From: Promethearchaeati archaeon
GTDB lineage: Archaea > Asgardarchaeota > Heimdallarchaeia > JABLTI01
DNA length: 12,066 nucleotides
NCBI GenBank assembly: GCA_013166835.1
Contig: JABLTI010000080.1
Coordinates: forward strand, 1-12,066
Direction: 5' to 3'
Shown: positions 375 to 12,066 of the stretch, piece by piece
Layout: each line of letters begins with the position of its first letter
Position numbering within the stretch: position 1 is the first letter of the stretch
Made by a program: the position numbers and the translations under genes
The notes under the pieces: generated by a model
What the model was told of the DNA's origin: nothing
The model's database searches: none
What the model saw: the letters and a program-made list of their open reading frames with translations, nothing else

Positions 375-465
375 GAGATGTTCGGTTTGCAGATACTTCC
401 CACTTTAGCGTGTCCTTCCCGAACCGGACTGCTTGTCCTGCAAGAAGAAGTATGAGTCCTGAGCA
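375..465 (+). repeat. Intergenic structured repeat, copy 1
   Basis: GAGATGTTCGGTTTGCAGATACTTCCCACTTTAGCGTGTCCTTCCCGAACCGGACTGCTTGTCCTGCAAGAAGAAGTATGAGTCCTGAGCA aligns by eye with six other copies and is followed by a T-rich tract (about 476-486). Confidence 0.93.
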
Positions 466-536
466 CCATTATCTGTTCTTTTTTTTGTCACAATCCTTAT
501 TATTTGATGAACAGAAGTTATTCTCTAGTGAAAAAA

Positions 537-2225
537 ATGAAAGCTTCAGATCTTTTCGTAAAGGCTTTAGAAAATGAAGGGGTGGAATATATTTTTGGCA
601 TTCCTGGAGAAGAGAATCTAGATTTACTTGAATCAATCAGAAAATCTTCCATTAAATTGATTCTCACTAGACACGAACAAGCAGCTGGTTTTATAGCAGC
701 TACTTATGGAAGGTTTACAGGTAAAGCTGGAGTCTGTTTATCAACTCTAGGTCCAGGAGCAACAAATCTTGTAACAGCTGCTGCATATGCTCAATTGGGA
801 GGTATGCCTTTAGTTATGATTACAGGACAGAAACCAATAAAAAAAAGCAAACAAGGCAGATTTCAAATCGTTGATATTGTCAATATGATGAAACCCCTAA
901 CCTATTTCACTAAACAAATAGTCAATGGCAATGCAATCCCTTCTATAGTCAGAGAAGCATTCCGATTAGCAGAAGAAGAGAGACCTGGAGCAGTTCATAT
1001 AGAATTACCTGAAGATATAGCTAGGGAAGAAACCACTGCTACTATTTTTGAAAAACATGATATTAGACGACCATCTGCTGATGAAAAGGCTATTGATTCT
1101 GCTATAAAAATAATTGAATTAGCTAAACACCCCTTATTACTCATCGGTGCAGGAGCAAATAGGAAAAGAATACAGAACGCTTTAGAGGAGTTCATTAATA
1201 AAACGGGAATACCATTTTTCAATACTCAAATGGCTAAAGGGGCTGTAGATGAAAGGCACCCTCTTTTTTTGGGTACAGCAGCTTTGTCAGATAATGATTA
1301 TCTTCATTGTGCAATTCGTAAAGCTGATTTAATTATCAATGTTGGTCATGATATTATTGAAAAACCTCCTTTCTTCATGCGTCATGGTGAGACAAGAGTT
1401 ATTCACTTAAATTTCTTCAAAGCTCACATAGATGATGTTTATTTTCCTCAAATTGAAGTTATTGGAGATATAGCTAATTCCGTTTCTAAAATAACTGAAA
1501 ATATCGATGTAAGTCAAAAGTGGGATTTTAAATATTTCAAAAAAGTAAAGAAAGAAGTCGATAACCACACCCAACAAGGATCAGACTGTAATGATTTTCC
1601 TGTTAAACCACAGAGATTAGTAGCAGATGTTAGAAAAGCTGTTCCTGAAGATGGAATTATTACACTAGATAACGGAATATACAAGATATGGTTTTCTAGA
1701 AGTTATTATGCTTATGAACCAAATTCTATTATCTTGGATAATGCTTTAGCAACTATGGGTGCAGGTTTACCATCAGCTATAGCAGCAAAGATTGTTTATC
1801 CAAAGAAGAAAGTTCTAGCTATTTGTGGCGATGGAGGATTTCTTATGAATTCACAAGAATTAGAAACAGCCATTCGATTAAATCTTGATTTTACCGTTTT
1901 AATTATTAATGATAGTGGTTATGGTATGATAAAATGGAAGCAAAAAATCATGAAATTTGAGGATTGGGGATTAGATTTCTCAAATCCAGATTTCGTAAAA
2001 TATGCAGAAAGTTATGGAGCAAAAGGATATAGACTTTCTAAGACTGAAGATTTATTGCCACTTTTACAAAATTGTTTGAACTCAAAAGGAGTACATGTTA
2101 TTGATCTACCTATAGACTATTCTGAAAATGTTAAAGTCCTTATTGATGAGTTACTTAAATTGGTTTGTATCTTAGATCCATCAACAGAGCCACTAAAAGA
2201 AATGAAATTAGAGTTTCATTCATGA
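537..2225 (+). CDS. ThDP-dependent enzyme, acetolactate synthase large subunit-like (possibly a 2-oxoacid or 2-oxoglutarate decarboxylase)
   Basis: N-terminal FGIPGEENL, RHEQAAGF (catalytic Glu), STLGPGATN, and the ThDP-binding GDGGFLMN...NDSGYG motif. The start is more likely ATG 537 (MKASDLFVKALENEG, a typical family N-terminus) than 504. No small regulatory subunit or other ilv genes are nearby. Confidence 0.9.
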   Translation: MKASDLFVKALENEGVEYIFGIPGEENLDLLESIRKSSIKLILTRHEQAAGFIAATYGRFTGKAGVCLSTLGPGATNLVTAAAYAQLGGMPLVMITGQKPIKKSKQGRFQIVDIVNMMKPLTYFTKQIVNGNAIPSIVREAFRLAEEERPGAVHIELPEDIAREETTATIFEKHDIRRPSADEKAIDSAIKIIELAKHPLLLIGAGANRKRIQNALEEFINKTGIPFFNTQMAKGAVDERHPLFLGTAALSDNDYLHCAIRKADLIINVGHDIIEKPPFFMRHGETRVIHLNFFKAHIDDVYFPQIEVIGDIANSVSKITENIDVSQKWDFKYFKKVKKEVDNHTQQGSDCNDFPVKPQRLVADVRKAVPEDGIITLDNGIYKIWFSRSYYAYEPNSIILDNALATMGAGLPSAIAAKIVYPKKKVLAICGDGGFLMNSQELETAIRLNLDFTVLIINDSGYGMIKWKQKIMKFEDWGLDFSNPDFVKYAESYGAKGYRLSKTEDLLPLLQNCLNSKGVHVIDLPIDYSENVKVLIDELLKLVCILDPSTEPLKEMKLEFHS

Positions 2226-2298
2226 AAATATAATTTTGTAAAACCGTACAATTATATAGACCTACATTCAAAGTTCTTACTGTATTGCAAAGGTGAAG

Positions 2299-3669
2299 AT
2301 GTTGACATTAGTTTCAATAAATCCTACTACTGGTGAGAAAATTAAAGAATATCAAGAAATGACACCAGAAGATGTTTCAGAAATATTACAAAAATCTAAT
2401 GAAGAATTTAAGAAATGGAGACGAGTTGCTTTTAGTGAAAGAAAGAAATTAATGTTAAAAGCTGCCAAAATCTTACGAGACAACAAAAATTCCTATGCAA
2501 AAATGTTGACTTTAGAGATGGGGAAAATCTTTAAGGATGCTATTGCTGAAGTAGAGAAATGTGCTTGGGTTTGTGAATATTATGCTGAAAATGCTGAAAC
2601 AATTCTAAAACCTGAGTTAGTTGAAACAGAAGCAACAAAAAGTTTTGTAGCTTTTCAACCATTAGGAGTAATTCTTGCAGTTATGCCATGGAATTTTCCA
2701 TATTATCAAGTATTCAGATTTGCTGCACCAGCTCTCATGGCTGGGAATGTCGGTGTTTTAAAACATGCTTCTAATGTTCCCGGTTCTGCTTTAATAATTG
2801 AAGAAGTTTTTAGAAAAGCTGGTTTTCCTGAATATGCATTCAAAACATTACTTATTGGTAGCAAACAAGTTGCAGCAGTAATAGAAAATGACATAGTAAA
2901 GGCTGTTACTTTAACTGGAAGCACTCCAGCAGGCAGAGCAGTAGCTTCTAAAGCCGGTGAAATGCTCAAGAAAACTGTTTTGGAATTAGGTGGTAGTGAT
3001 CCGTATATTATTCTTGAAGATGCAGATAATGAAGGAGCTGTAATGACTTGTGCCTATAGCAGATTAATTAATGCTGGACAAAGTTGTATAGCCGCTAAAA
3101 GATTTGTTATAGTGGAATCAAAGAAAGATGATTTTGTAGAAAGATTTGTAGAATCCATGAAATTAATGGAAATGGGTGACCCACTCAAACCTTCAACAAA
3201 TGTAGGTCCTTTGGCTAGATATGATTTAAGGGATGAGCTTCATCAACAGGTTCAAAAAAGTATAGAAATGGGCGCTGAGCTGCTTCTGGGTGGGTACATT
3301 CCTGAAGGTCCTGGAGCTTTTTATCCTCCAACAATCCTTACTAATGTAAAGAAGGGCATGCCAGCATATGATGAAGAACTTTTTGGACCAGTTGCCAGTA
3401 TCATTATAGCAAAAGATGAGAAGGAAGCAATCTCCATTGCAAATGATTCAATTTTTGGTTTAGGAAGTGCTGTTTTTACCAAAGATATTGCTAGAGGAGA
3501 AAGAATTGCTGTTGAGGAAATTGAAGCAGGAAGTTGTTTCATTAATACGTTTGTAAGATCTGATCCTAGATTACCTTTTGGTGGAACTAAACTAAGTGGA
3601 TATGGTAGAGAATTGTCTCATTATGGTATCAAGGAATTTGTTAATATCAAGACCATCTATATAAAATAA
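2299..3669 (+). CDS. NAD(P)-dependent aldehyde dehydrogenase, succinate-semialdehyde dehydrogenase (Sad/GabD1-like)
   Basis: Motifs MPWNFP, LKHASNVP, TLTGS, LELGGSDP (catalytic Glu), NAGQSC (catalytic Cys), EELFGPV and PFGGTKLSGYGRELS. GGTGA at 2292-2296 is probably the RBS, so the start is ATG 2299 or TTG 2302 rather than GTG 2293. Confidence 0.92.
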   Translation: MLTLVSINPTTGEKIKEYQEMTPEDVSEILQKSNEEFKKWRRVAFSERKKLMLKAAKILRDNKNSYAKMLTLEMGKIFKDAIAEVEKCAWVCEYYAENAETILKPELVETEATKSFVAFQPLGVILAVMPWNFPYYQVFRFAAPALMAGNVGVLKHASNVPGSALIIEEVFRKAGFPEYAFKTLLIGSKQVAAVIENDIVKAVTLTGSTPAGRAVASKAGEMLKKTVLELGGSDPYIILEDADNEGAVMTCAYSRLINAGQSCIAAKRFVIVESKKDDFVERFVESMKLMEMGDPLKPSTNVGPLARYDLRDELHQQVQKSIEMGAELLLGGYIPEGPGAFYPPTILTNVKKGMPAYDEELFGPVASIIIAKDEKEAISIANDSIFGLGSAVFTKDIARGERIAVEEIEAGSCFINTFVRSDPRLPFGGTKLSGYGRELSHYGIKEFVNIKTIYIK

Positions 3670-3731
3670 CCAAGCTACAATAAAACAATAAGTTTTAATC
3701 TAAAATTTTTTTACAATTACTTCTAATCATC

Positions 3732-3792
3732 TTAGCGTGTCCTTCCCGAACCGGACTTCTAGCCCTTAAAGAAGAAGTGTGAGTCCTGAGCA
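3732..3792 (+). repeat. Intergenic structured repeat, copy 2 (5'-truncated)
   Basis: TTAGCGTGTCCTTCCCGAACCGGACTTCTAGCCCTTAAAGAAGAAGTGTGAGTCCTGAGCA, followed by a T-rich tract. Confidence 0.93.
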
Positions 3793-4004
3793 TCGATTAT
3801 TTTTTCTTCTTTCTTTGAACTGCTTCCAATCTATCAAGAGATGATGTTTTTTTAAATTTGGAGTTTTATCTAGAATTAGACAAAAGAAACATAATTTCTA
3901 TAGAGGATATTTATTACAAGCTTCAGTTATTGTAATATTAATAGTTTTAAAACGCTAGAAGAGACTATGCAAGGAGATATTGATTAATAAAGTAGGTTGC
4001 ACCT

Positions 4005-4436
4005 ATGACTGAGAGTCCTTTCACTGATCCCACTCACCAACCAACCTTGGAGGAAATCAGATCAGCTCTAGGTTCTTGCTTCCCTCTCTGGGAACGCTTA
4101 ACCACTTTTATCGAGGAAACCTATAAGATAGAAGGAACTTGGAGCACTTGGGGTCCAGCAAAAACTGGTTGGAATCTCCGTTACCGACGAAAGGGTAAAT
4201 CACTGACTGCTTTACATCCTCAACAAAATCGGATTCTTGTACAAATCGTACTCGGTAAGGTTCAAGCTGAACGTGCTCTACAGCTTGAGCTTGGAGAGAA
4301 GGTCTCACGAATGTTGCAGGAGTCCCCGCAGTTGCGAGACGGACGTTGGCTGCACATTCCAGTGACCAGTGAATCCAATGCAAATGATGTGGAAAGTCTT
4401 TTACTGGCAAAGATACGACCACCTCGAAAGTTTTGA
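4005..4436 (+). CDS. DUF3788-like hypothetical protein
   Basis: 143-aa ORF with the pattern PTLEEI...W..L...IEETY...G.K.GW...Y.RKGK.L..L.P...V.IVLG...DGRWL.I.V...DV..LL..K, recalled as typical of DUF3788. No HMM was run. Confidence 0.72.
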   Translation: MTESPFTDPTHQPTLEEIRSALGSCFPLWERLTTFIEETYKIEGTWSTWGPAKTGWNLRYRRKGKSLTALHPQQNRILVQIVLGKVQAERALQLELGEKVSRMLQESPQLRDGRWLHIPVTSESNANDVESLLLAKIRPPRKF

Positions 4437-4529
4437 GGTTTTGGTTGTAGAAAATCAAGAAATCAATTCTCTTATTCATTCGACCGATATCGCTAATTAT
4501 CCTTTTCTCTTTCTTTTACATAATACAAT

Positions 4530-4590
4530 CGAGTTGCTCAGCCAGCAGGTACTTCCCACTTTAGCGTGTCATTCCCGCACCGGACTGCTA
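4530..4590 (+). repeat. Intergenic structured repeat, copy 3 (3'-truncated)
   Basis: CGAGTTGCTCAGCCAGCAGGTACTTCCCACTTTAGCGTGTCATTCCCGCACCGGACTGCTA. Its first about 30 nt are identical to the corresponding part of copy 4. Confidence 0.92.
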
Positions 4591-4609
4591 ACTTTTCAAA
4601 GAGTGAATG

Positions 4610-4619
4610 TTTTTATAAG
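4610..4619 (+). promoter_or_regulatory. Candidate archaeal TATA box for TA module 1
   Basis: TTTTTATAAG lies about 35-45 nt upstream of ATG 4654, and an AGTGAT RBS-like motif sits just before the start. The AT-rich background lowers specificity. Confidence 0.4.
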
Positions 4620-4653
4620 CGAGAAGAAGCTATAGTTAAGTAAGTGATTAGTA

Positions 4654-4893
4654 ATGGCTGATGATTGGAAAGCACACATAAGCTCGAAAGTAACCATTTG
4701 CCATGGAAGAGTGTGTATAAAGGATACTAGAGTGATGATTTCTGTCATCCTTGATTGCCTAGCTGAAGGTATGTCTGAGGAAGATATTCTTAAGGAGTAC
4801 CCTTCATTGAAGAAGGGTGATGTGAATATCGCAATCCAATATGCTGCTTCTCTTGCTCGTGGTGAAACTATCCCTTTACGAGCTGAAAGTTGA
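4654..4893 (+). CDS. DUF433-family protein (putative antitoxin, HTH-like)
   Basis: ICHGRVCIKDTRVMISVILDCLAEGMSEEDILKEYPSLKKGDVNIAIQYA matches the DUF433 pattern G.P.I.GTR+.V..IL..LA.G.S.EEIL..YP.L...DI.AAL.YA. Confidence 0.9.
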   Translation: MADDWKAHISSKVTICHGRVCIKDTRVMISVILDCLAEGMSEEDILKEYPSLKKGDVNIAIQYAASLARGETIPLRAES

Positions 4894-4903
4894 AGGTGTT
4901 GCC

Positions 4904-5269
4904 ATGAAATTCAAGCTCGATGAGAACGTTCCGTTTTCTTTGAAGAAACTTATCGAATCAAGAGGCGATCACCAAGTTGAGAGTGTTTTTCATGAGAAAA
5001 AAATCGGGATAGATGATCACACTTTGCTTGAATTATGCCTTCAGGAACAAAGAATTCTCATAACTCTTGATACTGATTTCAATAATCCAGTTATGCATCC
5101 TAAGGATTCGTTATATGGGATAATCATTCTTCGACCTTCTACTCAAGGGAAAAAGGCTGTTACTTCCTTACTCTCTCATTTCATGAGCAGTTATGAGTTT
5201 GAAAAAACCATAAAGAAAGTTCTTCTCGTTGAGTCTGAAAATATTTCTATTCGATGGGATTGTATTTAG
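4904..5269 (+). CDS. DUF5615-family PIN-like protein (putative toxin)
   Basis: MKFKLDENVP...GIDDHTLL...EQRILITLDTDF...GIIILR carries the acidic PIN-like residues. The true start is ATG 4904 (after GAAGGTG), not 4841. It lies directly downstream of the DUF433 gene. Confidence 0.88.
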   Translation: MKFKLDENVPFSLKKLIESRGDHQVESVFHEKKIGIDDHTLLELCLQEQRILITLDTDFNNPVMHPKDSLYGIIILRPSTQGKKAVTSLLSHFMSSYEFEKTIKKVLLVESENISIRWDCI

Positions 5270-5278
5270 TAAAATTAA

Positions 5279-5393
5279 GTGTTGTTCCCGTCTAGTTTTC
5301 GGGCGAGTTGCTCAGCCAGCAGGTACTTCCCACTTCAGCGTGTCCTTCCCGAAACGGACTGCTAGCCCTGCAAGAAGTAGTGAGTGTTAAGTA
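5279..5393 (+). repeat. Intergenic structured repeat, copy 4 (near full length)
   Basis: GTGTTGTTCCCGTCTAGTTTTCGGGCGAGTTGCTCAGCCAGCAGGTACTTCCCACTTCAGCGTGTCCTTCCCGAAACGGACTGCTAGCCCTGCAAGAAGTAGTGAGTGTTAAGTA is colinear with copy 5 over about 115 nt. It fills almost the whole gap between two convergent stop codons. Confidence 0.93.
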
Positions 5394-5405
5394 ATTGCTC
5401 TTTAA

Positions 5406-5765
5406 TCAAGGTAGTTCTACAATTCTCATGTGCTTCTCGTGAATAACAACAAATTTCTCAAAAGGATTGAATTCTTTATCTTCTAGTATTCTCTTAATAA
5501 TTGATTTTATTTTGTCAGGAGAAGTTGGTGGAAATCTAAGTAAGATTATCCCCTTTGATTTCACCTTTTCCTTAAAAATTAGTTGACCAAAGTCTTTGTC
5601 AAAGCTTATTATCACTAGCTCATTAACAAACGCAAATTTCATTATATCTTTATCATTCATCCCTCTCTTACTCGAAGCAATACTTTCAATTGGAAATCCT
5701 TTCTCACTTAACTCCTTAATTACCACTAGAGGTATATTCTCATCTGCAAGGTACTTGATTTTCAT
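5406..5765 (-). CDS. DUF5615-family PIN-like protein (putative toxin)
   Basis: MKIKYLADENIP...GMNDKDIM...VIISFDKDFGQLIF...GIILLR. Its start overlaps the DUF433 stop codon (ATGA, 5762-5765), which suggests translational coupling. Confidence 0.9.
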   Translation of the reverse strand: MKIKYLADENIPLVVIKELSEKGFPIESIASSKRGMNDKDIMKFAFVNELVIISFDKDFGQLIFKEKVKSKGIILLRFPPTSPDKIKSIIKRILEDKEFNPFEKFVVIHEKHMRIVELP

Positions 5766-6007
5766 TCTTCAACCTTCACTGGTCGCAATTGTTCCTCTTT
5801 TATAATGATTCTTGCATAATCTATTGCAGCGAGAATATCTGCTTTCTTTAGTTGAGGATAATTTTCCAAGATAGTTTCATATGCCCAATCATTTGCTAGC
5901 AACTCTAAAATAAACTCAACTGCTATTCTTGTTCCTTTTATGATTGCTTTACCTGTCAGTACCTTTGGATTTACCTCTATTCTTTCGTTTATTAAAGGAG
6001 TTGTCAT
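5762..6007 (-). CDS. DUF433-family protein (putative antitoxin)
   Basis: RIEVNPKVLTGKAIIKGTRIAVEFILELLANDWAYETILENYPQLKKADILAAIDYA is a canonical DUF433 pattern. Confidence 0.92.
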   Translation of the reverse strand: MTTPLINERIEVNPKVLTGKAIIKGTRIAVEFILELLANDWAYETILENYPQLKKADILAAIDYARIIIKEEQLRPVKVEE

Positions 6008-6039
6008 ACATTCATCACTAGATATCTTATTCCTATTTT

Positions 6040-6056
6040 CTTATATTAACTCTTTT
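6040..6056 (-). promoter_or_regulatory. Candidate BRE/TATA promoter for TA module 2
   Basis: The minus strand reads AAAAGAG-TTAATATAAG about 35-45 nt upstream of ATG 6007, with an AGTGAT RBS-like motif before the start. The layout matches module 1. Confidence 0.35.
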
Positions 6057-6084
6057 ACACATTATTTATTCTGACAAAAAACCT

Positions 6085-6200
6085 GTGGTGTACGCGTCGA
6101 GTCTTCGAGCGAGATGTCAGCCAGCAGGTTCTTCCCACTTTAGCGTGTCCTTCCCGAAACGGACTTCTAGACCTTCAAGAAGAAGTATGAGTCTTGAGCA
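6085..6200 (+). repeat. Intergenic structured repeat, copy 5 (longest, about 116 nt)
   Basis: GTGGTGTACGCGTCGAGTCTTCGAGCGAGATGTCAGCCAGCAGGTTCTTCCCACTTTAGCGTGTCCTTCCCGAAACGGACTTCTAGACCTTCAAGAAGAAGTATGAGTCTTGAGCA, followed by TCTTTTTTT. Confidence 0.94.
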
Positions 6201-6463
6201 TCTTTTTTTCCGAAAAGTAAATGAATTTATTAATTAATGTTTGCTAAATAAAAGAATGAGATGAATTTCATTTTTTCTTTAATAATTTACATATAACCTC
6301 TCATAATTTTAGAATAATTTCCAAATCTATGAGAATTTTTTTAACTCTAATATTTTATAAAAATCTAATACACTCTCTTATGAAGGTCTTCTGGCTATAT
6401 CAAGGGATTATACAATTGCTGAAGGATTTTTGTGATGATGTATAACTAAAAAGGAGGAAAAAT

Positions 6464-6775
6464 ATCTCATATAAAATAAAAATAACTTTTGTGAAAGTTT
6501 TTGGACCAAAAGAAATAATTGGTAAAGATTTCATCCTACTTTCTGGAAAACCAATACAAAAATGTGGTTTTTTTGATGAAGGGGATAAATTCATAGTACC
6601 AAAAACAGGAATAATGTCTGAAGGTTTTTGCCAACATGCTTATTACGCAATTTACAGGAGCTTAGATTTCATTAGATTGAGTGGAGGATACAAGGATTGG
6701 ACTGGTGAAGATGTTATCTACAGTGCTTGTTCTGATGGCATTCGACCTGTTTGTTTTAAATTAGAAAGAATATGA
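6464..6775 (+). CDS. TIGR04076-like small Cys-containing protein
   Basis: C.FF.EGD.F...GFC..AY..IY...L.GG...W...ACSDGIRPV.FKLERI matches the family as recalled. The frame is open upstream of GTG 6491 and encodes (I)SYKIKITF from ATC 6464, just after AGGAGG. Confidence 0.75.
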   Translation: MSYKIKITFVKVFGPKEIIGKDFILLSGKPIQKCGFFDEGDKFIVPKTGIMSEGFCQHAYYAIYRSLDFIRLSGGYKDWTGEDVIYSACSDGIRPVCFKLERI

Positions 6776-6824
6776 GTTTCTCTTTGAAGCTCATTAAAAA
6801 GATTGTAAATAGGATGTTATTTGT

Positions 6825-8669
6825 TTGGGTGTTATTACTAGAACATTTGATTACATGAATACTAAAACTTGGTGGATACTATTTTGGGGGATAGTAACCT
6901 CTATCCTACAAGCAGTTTTTGCTCTAGCAGCACCAAAAGTTGTGGAGAACATTGTAAACCGAGTATTCTATGGTGAAGATTTTAACATTATGATTTCTCT
7001 ATTAGCTATTTATATTGCGGTTTATTTTTGTATGTCTACTTGTAGATTTCTACAACAATACTTGAATACTTACATTTCCCAGACAATCATTTATGGACTT
7101 CGAAGCGAGTTGTATCGTACCATCCAGAAACAATCAATTGATTTTTTTGATCGAGTAGAGACTGGCCAACTAATCTCTAGAGGTACAAGTGATATCCGTG
7201 CAGTTAATGGTTTAATGAGAGAAAGTCTTCGCTTATTTATTCGAGCTATTGTTTCTTATATTGGGATTTTTGTTTTGATTGGTATAGTCGATTGGACTTT
7301 AATGCTTGTTGTGCTTTTGATAGCTTTAATTTTATTTGCAGTTATGTTTTATTACCTTAAACGTGTAAATCCCTTATTTCGCGTTATTCGCGAGAAATAT
7401 GGTGATCTGAACTCAGTCCTCTCTGAGAATATATATGGAGCACCTGTGGTTCGTGCATTTAATGCAGAAAAAATAGAAATGGACAAATTCCATAAAAATA
7501 ATCTTGATTACTATATTCTCAATAAAGAATTAACCAGATTGCAAGCCATTTTTACTGCTCTTTTTCCATTTCTTCTTGGTATTGGTTCATTTTTTCTTTT
7601 ATTTTTAGGAGGAAGAATGGTTATTAATGGTGAGATATTAGTGGGAACCTTAATTGCAGTTAATATTTATCTTCTTTTTTTAGGTGTTCCTACAAGGTTC
7701 TTATCTTTGGCAATCTTACAGTATCAAGAAGGTTTTGCTTCCTTAAAGCGACTATATGAAATCTATGATATGGAAAAGTGCATTGTTGAAAAGCAAGAAG
7801 CAATTGATTTACCAGCTGTTAAAGGAGAGATTGTTTTTGATAATGTAAAATTTGCTTATGTTGAAGGTGAACAACTTGTTCTTGATAATGTGTCCTTGCA
7901 AATTAATCCTGGTGAAACAATCGCTTTCTTAGGCACTACAGGTTCAGGGAAAAGCACTCTTGTAAGTTTAGTTCCACGGTTTTATGATCCACAAGAAGGA
8001 GCTGTTTTAATTGATGGATTCAATATCCAGGATGTTACCTTATCTTCACTTAGAAAACAGATTGCTGTAGTTCAGCAAGAAGCTTTTCTTTTCGCGAAAA
8101 GTATACGTGAAAATATTGCTTTTGGAAAACCAGATAGTACTAATGAAGAAATTATTCGTGTTGCAAAAATAGCTCAAGCTCATGAATTTATTATGAATTT
8201 ACCAGATGATTATGAAACAATACTTGCTGAGCGAGGAACAAACCTTTCAGGAGGACAAAGACAACGTTTAACTATTGCCCGTGCTCTTCTGCTTAACAAT
8301 CCTATATTAATTATGGATGATTCATCAAGTGCACTTGATTTTGAAACAGAGCATCAATTCCAAAAAGCTGTTTGTGAACTTATTAAAAATAAAACTACTC
8401 TTATCGTTACTCAAAGACTTTCGACGATTAAATTTGCTACAAAAATTGTTGTTATGGACAAAGGTAAGACTGTTGAGTTAGGAGCTCATGACGAGCTGAT
8501 AGCTAAAAGCGGATTATACAAACGTCTTTATGAGACTCAACTTGTTAATCATAACCAAATTTCTGTTGGCAATGAGGTAGAAGAAAAAGTAGCTGTATTA
8601 CCAATAGAATCAACTCTTATAGAAAAGCAAGCAAGGAAAAAAACGGAAAAAAAGAGGAATGAAGGATAA
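6825..8669 (+). CDS. ABC exporter half-transporter (TMD+NBD), TM287-like subunit with degenerate catalytic residues
   Basis: N-terminal hydrophobic helices, Walker A GTTGSGKS and signature LSGGQ. Walker B reads ILIMDD (Asp in place of the catalytic Glu) and the switch reads VTQR (Gln in place of His). Confidence 0.93.
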   Translation: MGVITRTFDYMNTKTWWILFWGIVTSILQAVFALAAPKVVENIVNRVFYGEDFNIMISLLAIYIAVYFCMSTCRFLQQYLNTYISQTIIYGLRSELYRTIQKQSIDFFDRVETGQLISRGTSDIRAVNGLMRESLRLFIRAIVSYIGIFVLIGIVDWTLMLVVLLIALILFAVMFYYLKRVNPLFRVIREKYGDLNSVLSENIYGAPVVRAFNAEKIEMDKFHKNNLDYYILNKELTRLQAIFTALFPFLLGIGSFFLLFLGGRMVINGEILVGTLIAVNIYLLFLGVPTRFLSLAILQYQEGFASLKRLYEIYDMEKCIVEKQEAIDLPAVKGEIVFDNVKFAYVEGEQLVLDNVSLQINPGETIAFLGTTGSGKSTLVSLVPRFYDPQEGAVLIDGFNIQDVTLSSLRKQIAVVQQEAFLFAKSIRENIAFGKPDSTNEEIIRVAKIAQAHEFIMNLPDDYETILAERGTNLSGGQRQRLTIARALLLNNPILIMDDSSSALDFETEHQFQKAVCELIKNKTTLIVTQRLSTIKFATKIVVMDKGKTVELGAHDELIAKSGLYKRLYETQLVNHNQISVGNEVEEKVAVLPIESTLIEKQARKKTEKKRNEG

Positions 8670-8690
8670 GCTTTCTTTGAGGTGAAAACT

Positions 8691-10532
8691 TTGGCTTTAA
8701 CAGGTTTACCAAATAGTTTCTTTGATGCAGTTGCTGAGGAGAAGGATAAAAAGGAAAAAGTTTCAGATCTCAAATTAATCCGATGGTCCTTTAGTTATCT
8801 AAAGGAACATAAATTGCTTGTCTTTGTTACTATTTTATTTATAATTACAAGCTCTGTAGTTGCTCTTGCTTCACCACAATTAATACGCTATATTATAGAT
8901 GATGCTTTTGGTGTTAATCCTACTTCTGTAGGTGATTCAACTCTTTTACTTTACTTAACCTTAGGATTGCTTAGTGTAACTATATTAACAGCAGTTATCC
9001 AAATTTTCAAAACAATCGGTTTAAATAATCTTGGATTAAGAGCAATTAGGGATATTCGTGATGATGCTTTTGGGAAACTGCAAAGTTTTTCCCTTGATTT
9101 CTTTGATAATAATGAAGCCGGTCGTATTATCTCTAAAGTAACAAATGATTGTGATCGCATTAATGAATTAATCAGTGGAGGATTTGTTGCAGCATTTACT
9201 GATTTCCTAACATTAGTTGGAATTGTTATCATGATGTTGTTTATGAATTGGCAGCTAGCCTTAATATCTTTGGGATTAGCAATTCCACTTGTTTTGATCT
9301 TTATTTTTGTTATTCGATCTAGAGCACGAAAAATCTACCGAAAAACTCGCCAAACTATTGCTATTCTTACTGCTAATCTTACAGAAAGCATTTCTGGTGT
9401 TCGAATTTCCAAATCTTTCAGTCGGGAAGGGAAAAATATTGAAGAATTTACCAATTTGTTAGACCAAGATAAAGCTGCTAATCTAAAAGCCGAACTTATC
9501 TTCGCATTGATGTTTCCAATAATCAATTTTATTAGTAGTGTGGTTATGGCTTTCATTTACTTCTTCTCTGGTTGGATTATAAATAATCCTTCATCAGCGA
9601 TTTTCTCTGGTTTACTAATAGGTACTGCGATTGCATTCACTCAATATATTGCAAACTTTTTCCAACCTTTTCTAAATCTAACTTTATTTTATAACACTTT
9701 TCAATCGACTATGGCTGCTACTGAGAGAATCTATGATCTAATGCATATAAAACCCCAAGTTATAGAGAAAGAGGATGCGTATGTTTTACGAGAAATTTTA
9801 GGTTTAGTTAGATTTGAGAAGGTTACTTTTGGTTATAATGATGAAGAATTAATTCTAGATGACTTTAATCTTGATGTAAAACCTGGAGAAAGAATTGCTA
9901 TTGTGGGACCTACAGGTGCCGGAAAAACAACTATAATTAATCTTCTCTCAAGATTTTATGAAATTCAGGAAGGAGCGATTTATATTGATGATCATAACAT
10001 ACAAGATATAACTCTTCATTCACTCCATTCTCAGATGGGTATTGTTTTGCAAGATCCCTATCTGTTTTCAGGGTCAATTAGAAAGAACATTTGTTATGGA
10101 AAAGAAAGTGTATCTGAAGATGAATTAATAGCTGTAGCAAAAACAGTGAATGCTTATGATTTTATACAAGAACTTCCTCAAGGGTTTGAAACTCAGGTAG
10201 GAGAACGAGGTTCTCGTCTTTCGTTTGGTCAAAGACAACTCATTTCCTTTGCACGAGCTTTGTTGGATAATCCTAAGATTCTCATTTTGGATGAAGCAAC
10301 AAGCTCTGTTGACCCCCATACAGAGCTTTTGATCAAGAGTACACTAGATAATTTATTGGTAGATAAGACCTCGATTATTATTGCTCACCGATTATCCACT
10401 GTTCAAAATGCTGATAGAATTATTGTTCTGAAAGATGGAAGAATCGTTGAAGAAGGCACTAATAATGAACTTCTGCAAAAGAAAGGAGAGTATTTTCATT
10501 TATATCAATTGCAATTTAAGGAACAAGAATAG
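8691..10532 (+). CDS. ABC exporter half-transporter (TMD+NBD), TM288-like subunit
   Basis: Walker A GPTGAGKT, Walker B LILDE, H-switch IAHR and a deviant signature LSFGQ. GAGGTGA at 8679-8685 is probably the RBS, so TTG 8691 is a better start than GTG 8682. Confidence 0.93.
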   Translation: MALTGLPNSFFDAVAEEKDKKEKVSDLKLIRWSFSYLKEHKLLVFVTILFIITSSVVALASPQLIRYIIDDAFGVNPTSVGDSTLLLYLTLGLLSVTILTAVIQIFKTIGLNNLGLRAIRDIRDDAFGKLQSFSLDFFDNNEAGRIISKVTNDCDRINELISGGFVAAFTDFLTLVGIVIMMLFMNWQLALISLGLAIPLVLIFIFVIRSRARKIYRKTRQTIAILTANLTESISGVRISKSFSREGKNIEEFTNLLDQDKAANLKAELIFALMFPIINFISSVVMAFIYFFSGWIINNPSSAIFSGLLIGTAIAFTQYIANFFQPFLNLTLFYNTFQSTMAATERIYDLMHIKPQVIEKEDAYVLREILGLVRFEKVTFGYNDEELILDDFNLDVKPGERIAIVGPTGAGKTTIINLLSRFYEIQEGAIYIDDHNIQDITLHSLHSQMGIVLQDPYLFSGSIRKNICYGKESVSEDELIAVAKTVNAYDFIQELPQGFETQVGERGSRLSFGQRQLISFARALLDNPKILILDEATSSVDPHTELLIKSTLDNLLVDKTSIIIAHRLSTVQNADRIIVLKDGRIVEEGTNNELLQKKGEYFHLYQLQFKEQE

Positions 10533-10559
10533 TTTTTTAGTTGTTTTTTGTGAGTAAGA

Positions 10560-10895
10560 CTAGATTTGCTTTATAATCGAAGAATTAAAACTCTTTATCA
10601 ACTGTAATAAAAGGAATACTTGGAAAGGGCTGCTTAGGAAAAATAAAAGAGAATAACCATCTTTATCAACATATAAATTACCATGTGAACCCACAAGAAT
10701 TTCGAGAGTTCCATCATCGACAAGATCTGCTACCGAAGCTGTAGAAATTATAATATCACTTGTAAAGTTCCGCTTACTATATACTCCTATTGTTTGAAGT
10801 TGTATTAATGTATCATTTAATGGTTCTTCTTTTTTCGCTTCAATATTGATTGGTTTAATAAAAATAATTATCAATAATAAAAAAATAATCATCAA
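10560..10895 (-). pseudogene. Probable remnant of a secreted FG-GAP/beta-propeller-like protein
   Basis: A signal-peptide-like N-terminus, one degenerate FG-GAP-like motif (STASVADLVDDGTLEILVGSHGNLYV), then a low-information Phe/Leu/Ser tail and a stop. Confidence 0.5.
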
Positions 10896-10986
10896 ATTCA
10901 GCCTTGCTTTTTTCGACTTAACCCACCCCGAAAGTTATATAAAATAAGCTCTAAAAATTCTTCTACTTTTCGATTAAAAGAATCAC

Positions 10987-11047
10987 TACTTACCACTTCA
11001 GCGTGTCCTTCCCGAAACGGACTGCTAGACCTTAAAGAAGAAGTGTG
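10987..11047 (+). repeat. Intergenic structured repeat, copy 6
   Basis: TACTTACCACTTCAGCGTGTCCTTCCCGAAACGGACTGCTAGACCTTAAAGAAGAAGTGTG. Confidence 0.92.
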
Positions 11048-11183
11048 TGCTGTTGAATTAAATAATTGTTATAATTATATACGCAGAATGTTCCTGTTAA
11101 AAAAATCATCTAGATTAAAAAATCAAAGAATGCTGGAATTTTATTTATCCAACATCTTTCAAACAATTCCTATTACATTACAA

Positions 11184-11630
11184 TTATTTCTTTATTGACA
11201 TAGTAATGCTCTCTTCTTCTGTCTTCACAGAATATTGCAGCTTTTGTTTTTCTATAATTGGTTGCCAAACATTGTAAATGCGTTCAAAATCATCCCGAGT
11301 AATTTGAGCAGCTTTTAGCAATTCTATATTAGGATAGTCCTTTATTACAATAGTTCCTTCATCTTTTTTGATATCCACCGATTCGACTTTTGCACCAAAA
11401 TTGGTCATGATTCTTTCCACATTTTTTACCACTTGCTCTAATGTCATATCTTCTTCCCAAGTTTTGGCTCCAAGTTCTCCATATAAAAGACCAAATTCTT
11501 CTATAGGTTGATTAATTTTTTTCAAATGTGCAACCGCAGCTATTGTCGCCATGTTTAAATTCGTTTGCAAACTAGCAATAATTTCTTTTAGTACAGAAAT
11601 TTCTTCTTCTTTTTTTTCTGTCATTTTCAT
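11184..11630 (-). CDS. Hypothetical protein (about 146-148 aa)
   Basis: Protein-like composition with an amphipathic alpha/beta pattern. The start is more plausibly ATG 11630 or 11624 (MKMTEKKEEE) than 11684. Family not recognised. Confidence 0.75.
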   Translation of the reverse strand: MKMTEKKEEEISVLKEIIASLQTNLNMATIAAVAHLKKINQPIEEFGLLYGELGAKTWEEDMTLEQVVKNVERIMTNFGAKVESVDIKKDEGTIVIKDYPNIELLKAAQITRDDFERIYNVWQPIIEKQKLQYSVKTEEESITMSIKK

Positions 11631-12028
11631 TTCACATACATTCGTTAGTGTTTTAAAATCTTGAAATCGATTACTTTCAAGCATTGTATCTAAGAAATTT
11701 TATTTAAAATTTTGAAGGTAGAGCTATTTGATTAGTCAGAGTCTAATAATAGAATATAACGAAAACTACCCTCATGTTAAGCTAATGTTAACTGCTTAAT
11801 ATTTCTTCTGGGTTTAATCATTGTTTTTTATGTAATTTAAGAGATTAAATGAAAAGGTAGTTCTAAAAAAAATATTTTCTAGTTACATTTAGCTTTAGAA
11901 TTTTGATAAAAACTATTAAATAAATTATTTTTTGTCGCTAACTTTGGAAGTCTAATCTAGTTATTTAACGCTTATTTCAAGGTTTTCTTTGATGTTTAAA
12001 TCTACCATAAAGCATTCAATTATGATGA

Positions 12029-12066
12029 AGTGTGTCATTACCGAAACGGACTTCTAGACCTTAAAG
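12029..12066 (+). repeat. Intergenic structured repeat, copy 7 (5'-truncated, runs off the window end)
   Basis: AGTGTGTCATTACCGAAACGGACTTCTAGACCTTAAAG matches the core of copies 5 and 6 with few substitutions. Confidence 0.85.

Follow-up and report, generated by a model that had tools for sequence, protein, structure and literature searches.

An array of accessory gene cassettes separated by co-oriented copies of the 23S rRNA 3′ end and trailer in a genus of Heimdall archaea

The window analyzed here is a 12,066-nt stretch of DNA from a Promethearchaeati archaeon (Asgardarchaeota; Heimdallarchaeia; JABLTI01) and comprises the whole of contig JABLTI010000080.1 (C217) of assembly GCA_013166835.1 (hereafter G000; 3.56 Mb, 260 contigs, ~85% complete, ~33% G+C). 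It carries seven copies of a repeat which, by alignment, is ~95–105 nt long with a well conserved centre and more variable flanks. All seven lie on the + strand and between open reading frames (ORFs), and the contig end falls inside the seventh. A 30-nt core pattern detects six of them on the + strand at ≤3 mismatches (406–435, 3733–3762, 4562–4591, 5336–5365, 6141–6170, and 10999–11028); none of 200 dinucleotide-preserving shuffles yields a match. The clipped seventh copy (12029–12066) was recovered by a repeat-family search of the window, and the start-to-start spacings are 3327, 829, 774, 805, 4858, and 1029 bp. The initial annotation, made from the sequence alone, had placed seven co-oriented intergenic copies at these positions and intervals; core matches and family search bear this out, as family searches of the window ORFs do for the gene content it gave for the modules in between. 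What it took for an unrecognised repeat duplicates, as a pseudo-copy, the 3′-terminal part of the 23S rRNA gene together with its 3′ trailer, and the array that the copies punctuate is anchored at the 23S gene.

Repeat copies and cargo alternate along the window. Copy 1 (376–476, +; 90.6 bits, model positions 2–102) consists of a diverged left arm resembling the 23S 3′ end, a core of trailer type in which the purine box AAGAAGAAG lies, and a right arm. It precedes cassette 1 (504–3669, +), in which family matches identify a thiamine diphosphate (ThDP, also TPP) enzyme (504–2225) and an aldehyde dehydrogenase (2293–3669). The 23S-derived left arm is nearly absent from copy 2 (3704–3805, +), which has a full core and right arm and is followed by a single gene matching DUF3788 (cassette 2; 4005–4436, +). 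In copy 3 (4530–4611, +), the left arm (4530–4573) corresponds to the last 44 nt of the 23S rRNA of the sister genome G005 at 88.6% identity, and the right part is decayed. Cassette 3 (4654–5269, +) matches DUF433 and DUF5615 (PIN-like), a putative toxin-antitoxin pair with homologous cassettes, differently ordered, in other genomes. Copy 4 (5279–5397, +) begins with the last 69 nt of the 23S at 84% (5279–5347) and has a replaced right arm, after which family matches give the reverse pair, DUF5615 and DUF433, on the − strand (cassette 4; 5406–6007). Copy 5 (6082–6209, +; 91.7 bits) contains the last 72 nt of the 23S at 88.9% (6082–6152) as well as a full core and right arm. The largest module, cassette 5 (6491–10895), holds genes for a TIGR04076 protein (6491–6775, +) and for two MsbA-like ABC half-transporters (permease/ATPase; 6825–8669, + and 8682–10532, +), and a 111-aa ORF without family on the opposite strand (10560–10895, −). 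Copy 6 (10977–11069, +) combines a short left arm (~25 nt 23S-like) with a full core and a divergent right arm; cassette 6 is a 166-aa ORF without family (11184–11684, −), and copy 7, clipped by the contig end (12028–12066, +), has a core of the type found in genuine 23S trailers. T-runs lie 3′ of many repeat copies on the + strand.

The origin of the repeat is most directly seen in G005, where the gene and the array are assembled together. On G005:C98:84000–103999, the Rfam model LSU_rRNA_archaea (RF02540) matches positions 14489–18770 with 2340 bits over its full length (1–2987), and the model end falls inside the first repeat copy (18727–18827), the last model positions aligning to the left arm of that copy. 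Accordingly, sequence from the 3′ end of the 23S rRNA forms the left part of the repeat, and the 23S 3′ trailer makes up the remainder (centre and right part). Across copies, the 23S-derived portion ranges from ~8 to ~170 nt. In G000, the only sequences matching the 23S end are repeat copies, namely the stretches in window copies 5 (72 nt, 89%), 4 (69 nt), and 3 (44 nt) and one copy on contig C141 (131 nt); the longest 23S stretch in a single G000 copy is ~130–170 nt. Five genuine 23S ends with their trailers are identical up to the purine box and diverge directly after it. The same box is the most conserved block among 124 copies (0.92–0.98), and conservation drops right behind it. The leader upstream of the 23S is also conserved and is complementary to the trailer, the two forming the processing stem of the pre-23S rRNA. 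Co-folding of leader and trailer from three species gives a long stem of −41 to −46 kcal/mol, in which the right arm of the first copy, specific to the species, also base-pairs with the leader from the same genome.

No other identity of the repeat emerged. An Rfam search of the window at E up to 1 gave no match. A coding repeat is ruled out, as no frame is open throughout the copies (at best in 15 of 27 copies across six frames). Single-strand DNA folds of copy 5 were no better than shuffles (z +1.60 and +0.86), nor were RNA folds of four copies on both strands (z −1.65 to +1.39). RNAalifold on 27 copies returned only a 3-bp hairpin, which shows two G-U-compatible changes and one compensatory change and no significant covariation. 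On these fold scores and the three-pair consensus structure, a structured RNA or a folded single-stranded DNA was rejected as the basis of the repeat.

To place the window in a wider context, the repeat was searched in a genus set of 11 genomes (assemblies 64–92% complete) and in 30 genomes of nine other Heimdall genera, and orientation was mapped in three genomes, G000, G005, and G010 (14 contigs bearing 125 copies). With a covariance model built on sequence only, every one of the 11 genus genomes gave matches, 1 to 61 copies each, and 0 of the 30 others did. Exact core matches in public genomes fall only on contigs labelled as Candidatus Heimdallarchaeota metagenome-assembled genomes (MAGs). 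Within G000, a profile search at E up to 1 yields 41 matches on 7 of the 260 contigs, and 38 of these are concentrated on four: C141 (14, all +), C133 (14, all −), the window contig C217 (7, all +), and C215 (3, all −). Three other contigs have one match each, one of them doubtful (E 0.065); a weaker profile gave 26 matches on 6 contigs. Co-orientation within a contig is complete (125/125). Both the clustering and the strand bias for which the initial annotation proposed a profile scan of the genome and its relatives are present.

A single 23S gene is assembled in five of the 11 genus genomes and unassembled in the rest, including G000. In all five, the 23S 3′ end coincides with a repeat match on the same strand ("copy zero"). 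The G005 array starts within a contig of 130 kb; the 19 kb on its left side are syntenic with G008, G009, G010, G007, and G000, and the last 4.7 kb before it, which stand out at 83–93% nucleotide identity, are the 23S gene. Downstream of the 23S, arrays extend over at least 54 kb in G000 and ~100 kb in G005, and they make up 1.5–2.5% of the genome. Homology between species is lost within about 30–170 nt of the 23S end in six of six pairs, so that the first cassette must have turned over since the species split. The distal end of the array was not located: in G010:C33, the sequence beyond the right-most detected copy lacks synteny too, and its matches lie on scattered contigs, of which some contain repeats. 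A gradient with the youngest copies proximal was not seen in G005:C98, where proximal copies are partial and distal ones full. No tRNA genes were found in 11 array or flank loci, and in three genomes of other genera (G016, G012, and G022) the 20 kb downstream of the 23S contain no copy of its end or trailer. Isolated repeat-like matches on the opposite strand occur upstream of the 23S, outside the arrays: a strong one at G008:C95:20598–20665 (−; E 1.8e-14) and weaker ones at G005:C98:55145–55195 and 56127–56172 (−; E 2.5e-7 and 0.011).

The 23S genes themselves span between 3259 and 4282 nt depending on the genome, a variation that suggests further introns. In G005, an insertion at ~16524–17373 of the C98 segment given above encodes a 185-aa LAGLIDADG endonuclease (16718–17275); it is missing from G008, G009, and G010, whose alignments stop at 16524 and start again at 17373. 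We therefore rejected this match as an enzyme of the array edge, since it is located in a 23S intron that sister species do not have.

Cassettes were delimited by the repeat copies. On 12 contigs, the outermost copies enclose 111 intervals (median 1260 bp, range 71–12,541 bp), 77 of which hold one (46) or two (31) ORFs. Single-ORF cassettes point along the repeat direction in 27 cases and against it in 19. Pfam searches of 248 array ORFs, tallied in two halves, returned more than 100 families per half. Among the 25 most frequent families listed for each half are DUF433 (8), DUF5615 (6), and HicA (3), HEPN, nucleotidyltransferase, PIN, and ThsB-TIR (2 each), as well as transporters, dehydrogenases, lactamase-fold, and repeat proteins. 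Pairs of DUF433 and DUF5615 (PIN-like) are the commonest cassette type, occur in both orientations, and have paralogues within an array at 35–45% identity.

Cassette order is scrambled between species. Among 45 between-genome pairs of cassettes that share a homologue, the upstream neighbour is common in one and the downstream neighbour in one, in contrast to the genes around the tyrosine recombinase locus described below, which form a collinear block in seven genomes. Direction with respect to the repeat is nevertheless fixed, being kept in 32 of 32 cassette pairs at ≥57% aa identity. Window cassettes 3 and 4, for instance, occur in reversed order in G010:C33, where the cassette 4 homologue precedes, and each retains its orientation to the repeat. 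The comparison of modules between species suggested by the initial annotation thus found no conserved order, and its description of the copies as partitioning a cassette-like array is supported. Five cassette pairs of G000 and G005 are 90–96% identical in aa sequence (DNA up to 96.4% over 994 nt), as against 46–89% for twelve core genes at the recombinase locus in the same two genomes, which suggests recent exchange between species. In functional terms, the locus is an integron-like cassette array, with co-oriented, clustered sites and with cassettes that move as units with their site. Its other suggested identity, a strand-biased dispersed element such as a miniature inverted-repeat transposable element (MITE), a repetitive extragenic palindromic (REP) sequence, or a non-coding RNA, is rejected by the clustering and co-orientation together with the absence of an Rfam match in the window, of covariation, and of an open frame common to all copies (the HUH/RAYT and IS110 families lay outside the search).

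Cassette 1 may have a distinct history. Its ThDP-enzyme/aldehyde-dehydrogenase pair (window 504–3669) is kept at 69–83% nucleotide identity in other, repeat-free Heimdall genera, with loci at G011:C113, G030:C43, G029:C11, G019:C19, and G017:C111. Homology in G009 (89% nt) and G011 (83% nt) is limited to window positions 531–3690, and the G011 match has no flanking repeat. In G009, the pair adjoins, on their upstream side in repeat orientation, the three copies detected on contig C18. Cassette 1 looks like a native operon that was taken into the array or borders it.

Which of the two flanking copies belongs to a cassette was examined in 28 homologous cassette pairs (≥70% aa identity); these pairs are not independent, so that the p-values given here are overstated. 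In the downstream copy, pair identity exceeds the random-pair background in the left arm (0.47 vs 0.23; p 3.5e-6) and in the core (0.69 vs 0.50; p 1.6e-4), and in the right arm it does not differ significantly (0.39 vs 0.37). No segment of the upstream copy is raised (right arm, p 0.28). Single alignments uphold the left-arm pattern; the right arm differs among them and sometimes tracks the downstream cassette. Since the downstream left arm and core co-vary with the cassette, a cassette reads as variable start, gene(s), 23S-like arm, and core, each having its own downstream 23S-like arm and core. Exchange probably takes place within the purine box or close to it, which is also where the genuine trailers diverge. 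The best dyad at the conserved site, at consensus positions 54–77, matches at 6 of 9 positions around a 6-bp spacer and is weak.

A search for the responsible enzyme gave one candidate. PF00589 (tyrosine recombinase) had no match on the array contigs of G000, G005, G007, G008, G009, and G010. Serine recombinases (PF00239) were found in one of ten sister genomes of the genus, and none on array contigs, compared with 18 of 29 genomes of other Heimdall genera. Four annotated array edges carry sulfotransferase, alkaline phosphatase, S8 and C11 peptidases, and FtsX-type proteins. Just one tyrosine recombinase is conserved across the genus, a XerA-like protein of 352 aa (G000:C61:14199–15257). It scores 117 bits against NF040815 (cut-off 220) and is ~90 residues longer than the model, and its catalytic Arg, His-x-x-Arg, and Tyr align with those of Pyrococcus abyssi XerA. 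Orthologues (64–91% identity) are confined to the genus (G005:C55, G010:C8, G007:C37, G003:C158, and G002:C96); the contig ends inside the gene in G008 and G009, and the G002 contig starts at it. Searches of the 11 genus genomes found no canonical XerA; in other Heimdall genera, XerA is either canonical or absent. G000:C61:15705–16400, adjacent to the recombinase and to a small winged-helix-like ORF, encodes an Nmad2 (nucleotide-modification-associated) protein and a methyltransferase, an order kept in several genus genomes. According to earlier work (PMC2958812), archaeal dif does not adjoin xerA, and XerA suffices in vitro without a partner. The co-distribution of protein and array makes the XerA-like recombinase a plausible candidate for the array enzyme.

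We hold with high confidence that the architecture, a co-oriented cassette array anchored at the 23S gene, is real; it is near-certain for the sister genomes and very likely for G000. For its origin, we propose serial recombination of circular, integrase-less cassettes into the 23S trailer by a site-specific enzyme acting in trans, a full model to which we assign a probability of about one half. The starting point is a single 23S rRNA gene directly followed by a long array of accessory cassettes, with one copy in rRNA orientation between neighbours. Circular cassettes without an integrase would enter the chromosome by recombination at one site of the 23S trailer that coincides with or adjoins AAGAAGAAG, and each insertion would leave a duplicated site. 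The proximal insert would restore a functional processing stem. Later recombination from copy to copy would then shuffle, delete, and export cassettes, between species too. The enzyme would act in trans, and the candidate for it is the XerA-like tyrosine recombinase of 352 aa that is specific to the genus. We infer circular intermediates, the crossover position, and such an enzyme from a pattern in which a single stable-RNA entry point, co-oriented partial copies, cassettes with their own sites, a restored stem, and shuffling of units all occur together, as would be expected from serial recombination of circles into one site. The suggestion in the initial annotation of a non-attC gene-capture system with its recombinase elsewhere thus stands as regards the non-attC site, which has neither R-boxes nor a significant fold and is accompanied by no IntI, and as regards the array contigs, on which no recombinase was found, so that any such enzyme would have to lie elsewhere.

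Several observations weigh against this model. A recombinase is absent from the array contigs (searched with PF00589, and for serine families separately) and from the four annotated array edges. The XerA-like gene sits in a conserved, repeat-free neighbourhood, and its co-distribution with the array would be shared by any genus-specific gene. The weak dyad symmetry is untypical of a tyrosine-recombinase core. Breakpoints between homologous cassettes are non-uniform, and the right arm travels with the downstream cassette in only some pairs; the 23S-derived length varies widely and many copies are right halves only, which fits homologous recombination or decay equally well. Since G000 has no assembled 23S, the window is linked to the 23S gene by homology with sister genomes. 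The cassette ORFs are greedy calls of ≥60 aa rather than the output of a gene caller, and mis-binning could partly explain the high cassette identity between MAGs, G000 and G005 having ~7% estimated contamination. In public reads (Logan contigs from four runs), contigs end at repeats, the 25–40-nt sides of joints lie inside repeats, and loose ends may all be other copies. An excised circle or alternative junction was not demonstrable in these data because Logan contigs break at repeats.

Some of these points lead to the strongest competing explanation, in which the same architecture arises without a dedicated enzyme, by ordinary homologous (Campbell-type) integration and excision of circular or linear DNA that shares a stretch with the 23S end/trailer, each event duplicating that stretch and gene conversion maintaining the similarity among copies. 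The variable breakpoints, the 23S-derived arm of 8 to ~170 nt, and the lack of a linked recombinase would all follow, as would the species-specific types of right arm, which are what homogenisation within a genome would give. The conserved segment is a difficulty for it: many copies keep just ~40–50 nt (profile matches starting at positions 41–69), which is short for efficient homologous recombination, and conservation peaks sharply on the 13-nt purine box instead of being spread evenly along the repeat. Five genuine trailers diverging at the same base are likewise hard to reconcile with it, and it leaves unexplained how unrelated genes first acquired the site. We consider this explanation unlikely, though it has to be taken seriously.

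A graveyard of complete mobile elements is less probable again. Proviruses or plasmids that had each integrated themselves into the 23S 3′ end and then decayed would account for the site duplication, which at the 3′ end of a stable RNA is an established signature of such elements, and for some large intervals of up to 12.5 kb. There is also a precedent for an element at a Heimdall rRNA gene, as Wu et al. 2022 (PMC8813620), among other Heimdallarchaeum elements, place HeimM2 exactly between the only 16S gene and a tRNA gene of Ca. Heimdallarchaeum. The intervals speak against decayed elements, with a median of 1.26 kb and one or two genes, as do the small cassettes that recur as units in new contexts. 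The cargo among the top Pfam families listed is metabolic, toxin-antitoxin, or defence-like and not made up of viral or plasmid core genes, and the recombinases that such elements would have brought are missing from the array contigs of six genomes (PF00589) or confined to one of ten genus genomes (serine type).

That the copies are kept for a role at the RNA level or as transcription signals (alternative strands of the processing stem, terminators, or promoters), the array having arisen otherwise, seems very improbable. The block conserved best among them is precisely the one that base-pairs with the 23S leader, T-runs follow many copies, and the small hairpin shows G-U-compatible and compensatory changes. 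Yet each genome has one leader, the arrays hold no leader-like copies on the opposite strand (125/125 on one strand), cassette genes point both ways (27 vs 19), neither fold nor covariation is significant, and the scrambled order and the 23S-derived arms would go unexplained.

The canonical attC/IntI integron was rejected: no pair of R″ (RYYYAAC) and R′ (GTTRRRY) boxes occurs at the seven copies on either strand, the sole pair in the window (9676–9813) lying inside a gene; there is no significant fold; and IntI (TIGR02249) exceeds the cut-off in 0 of 11 genus genomes (best 48 bits vs 265). A classical integron or cluster of attC sites lacking an integron integrase (CALIN), of the kind that Ghaly et al. 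2022 (PMC9668308) describe as enriched in Asgard genomes and report from almost 8% of them, mostly without IntI and with up to 107 attCs per MAG, is hardly credible even with divergent attC sites, although layout and toxin-antitoxin-rich cargo resemble chromosomal integrons, given those same results, the 3-bp consensus hairpin, a site homologous to 23S rRNA, and a repeat conserved most at its centre and least at its ends, the opposite of the terminal boxes of attC.

The array nonetheless invites comparison with known systems. With sedentary chromosomal integrons and CALINs it shares a single entry point, a long array of cassettes of one or two genes with their own site copy at one end, co-oriented sites, accessory cargo rich in toxin-antitoxin genes, an order scrambled between relatives, and cassettes common to several species. 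Unlike in integrons, the site is a homologue of the 23S 3′ end and trailer and not a folded attC, no IntI is present, no recombinase lies beside the entry point, gene orientation is only weakly biased (27:19), and the entry point contributes a strand to a functional rRNA processing stem. Integrative mobile elements exploiting Xer (IMEX), such as the CTX/RS1/TLC arrays in Vibrio, insert at dif. They resemble the present array in having no recombinase of their own, a single chromosomal site, an unlinked host recombinase (here the XerA-like candidate), and tandem co-oriented arrays with hybrid sites; here, by contrast, the 11-6-11-type dyad is weak, nothing marks the site as the dif of the chromosome, and dozens of small cassettes take the place of a few phage-like elements. 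Tyrosine-integrase elements, including archaeal ones of SSV/pTN3 type, integrate at the 3′ ends of tRNA or tmRNA genes and likewise leave partial direct copies of a stable-RNA 3′ end in gene orientation, the incoming DNA restoring a functional end. They differ in that the target here is the 23S trailer, the array contigs carry no integrase, and the duplicated segment reaches upstream into the RNA gene instead of being limited to the side downstream of the crossover. Finally, the eukaryotic rDNA-specific elements R1/R2 and Pokey are single, autonomous, and equipped with their own endonuclease or reverse transcriptase. Like HeimM2, they are mobile DNA at a fixed site in or next to an rRNA gene, but what is found here is an array of non-autonomous cassettes and not a single autonomous element. 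A full-text search found no account of cassette arrays at the 23S 3′ end (subscription-only papers and supplements lay outside its scope).

Taken further, and only tentatively, serial recombination into the trailer may make the locus an integron analogue anchored at rRNA, with the 3′ strand of the processing stem as its equivalent of attI. A host recombinase derived from XerA, with its ~90 additional residues, would insert and excise cassettes. Incoming cassettes would have to restore pairing with the leader, and the array could serve as a pool of accessory genes shared between species, possibly expressed by read-through from the rRNA promoter. We regard this extended version as somewhat doubtful.

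The findings bear on how such genomes are read as well as on their biology. Short-read assemblies are interrupted by the repeats at the rRNA locus, with no 23S gene in most genus MAGs and with arrays on small contigs, and surveys based on attC would probably miss arrays of this kind, since the copies have no canonical attC features. Asgard archaea are the closest known relatives of eukaryotes, and arrays in the 23S trailer recall the targeting of rDNA by eukaryotic mobile elements. Across a whole genus of Heimdall archaea, 50–100 kb of accessory genes open to exchange are kept behind the only 23S rRNA gene. If a recombinase does act at the site, gene capture would have been solved a second time, independently of the integron, and the recombination site would descend from a functional RNA-processing element.

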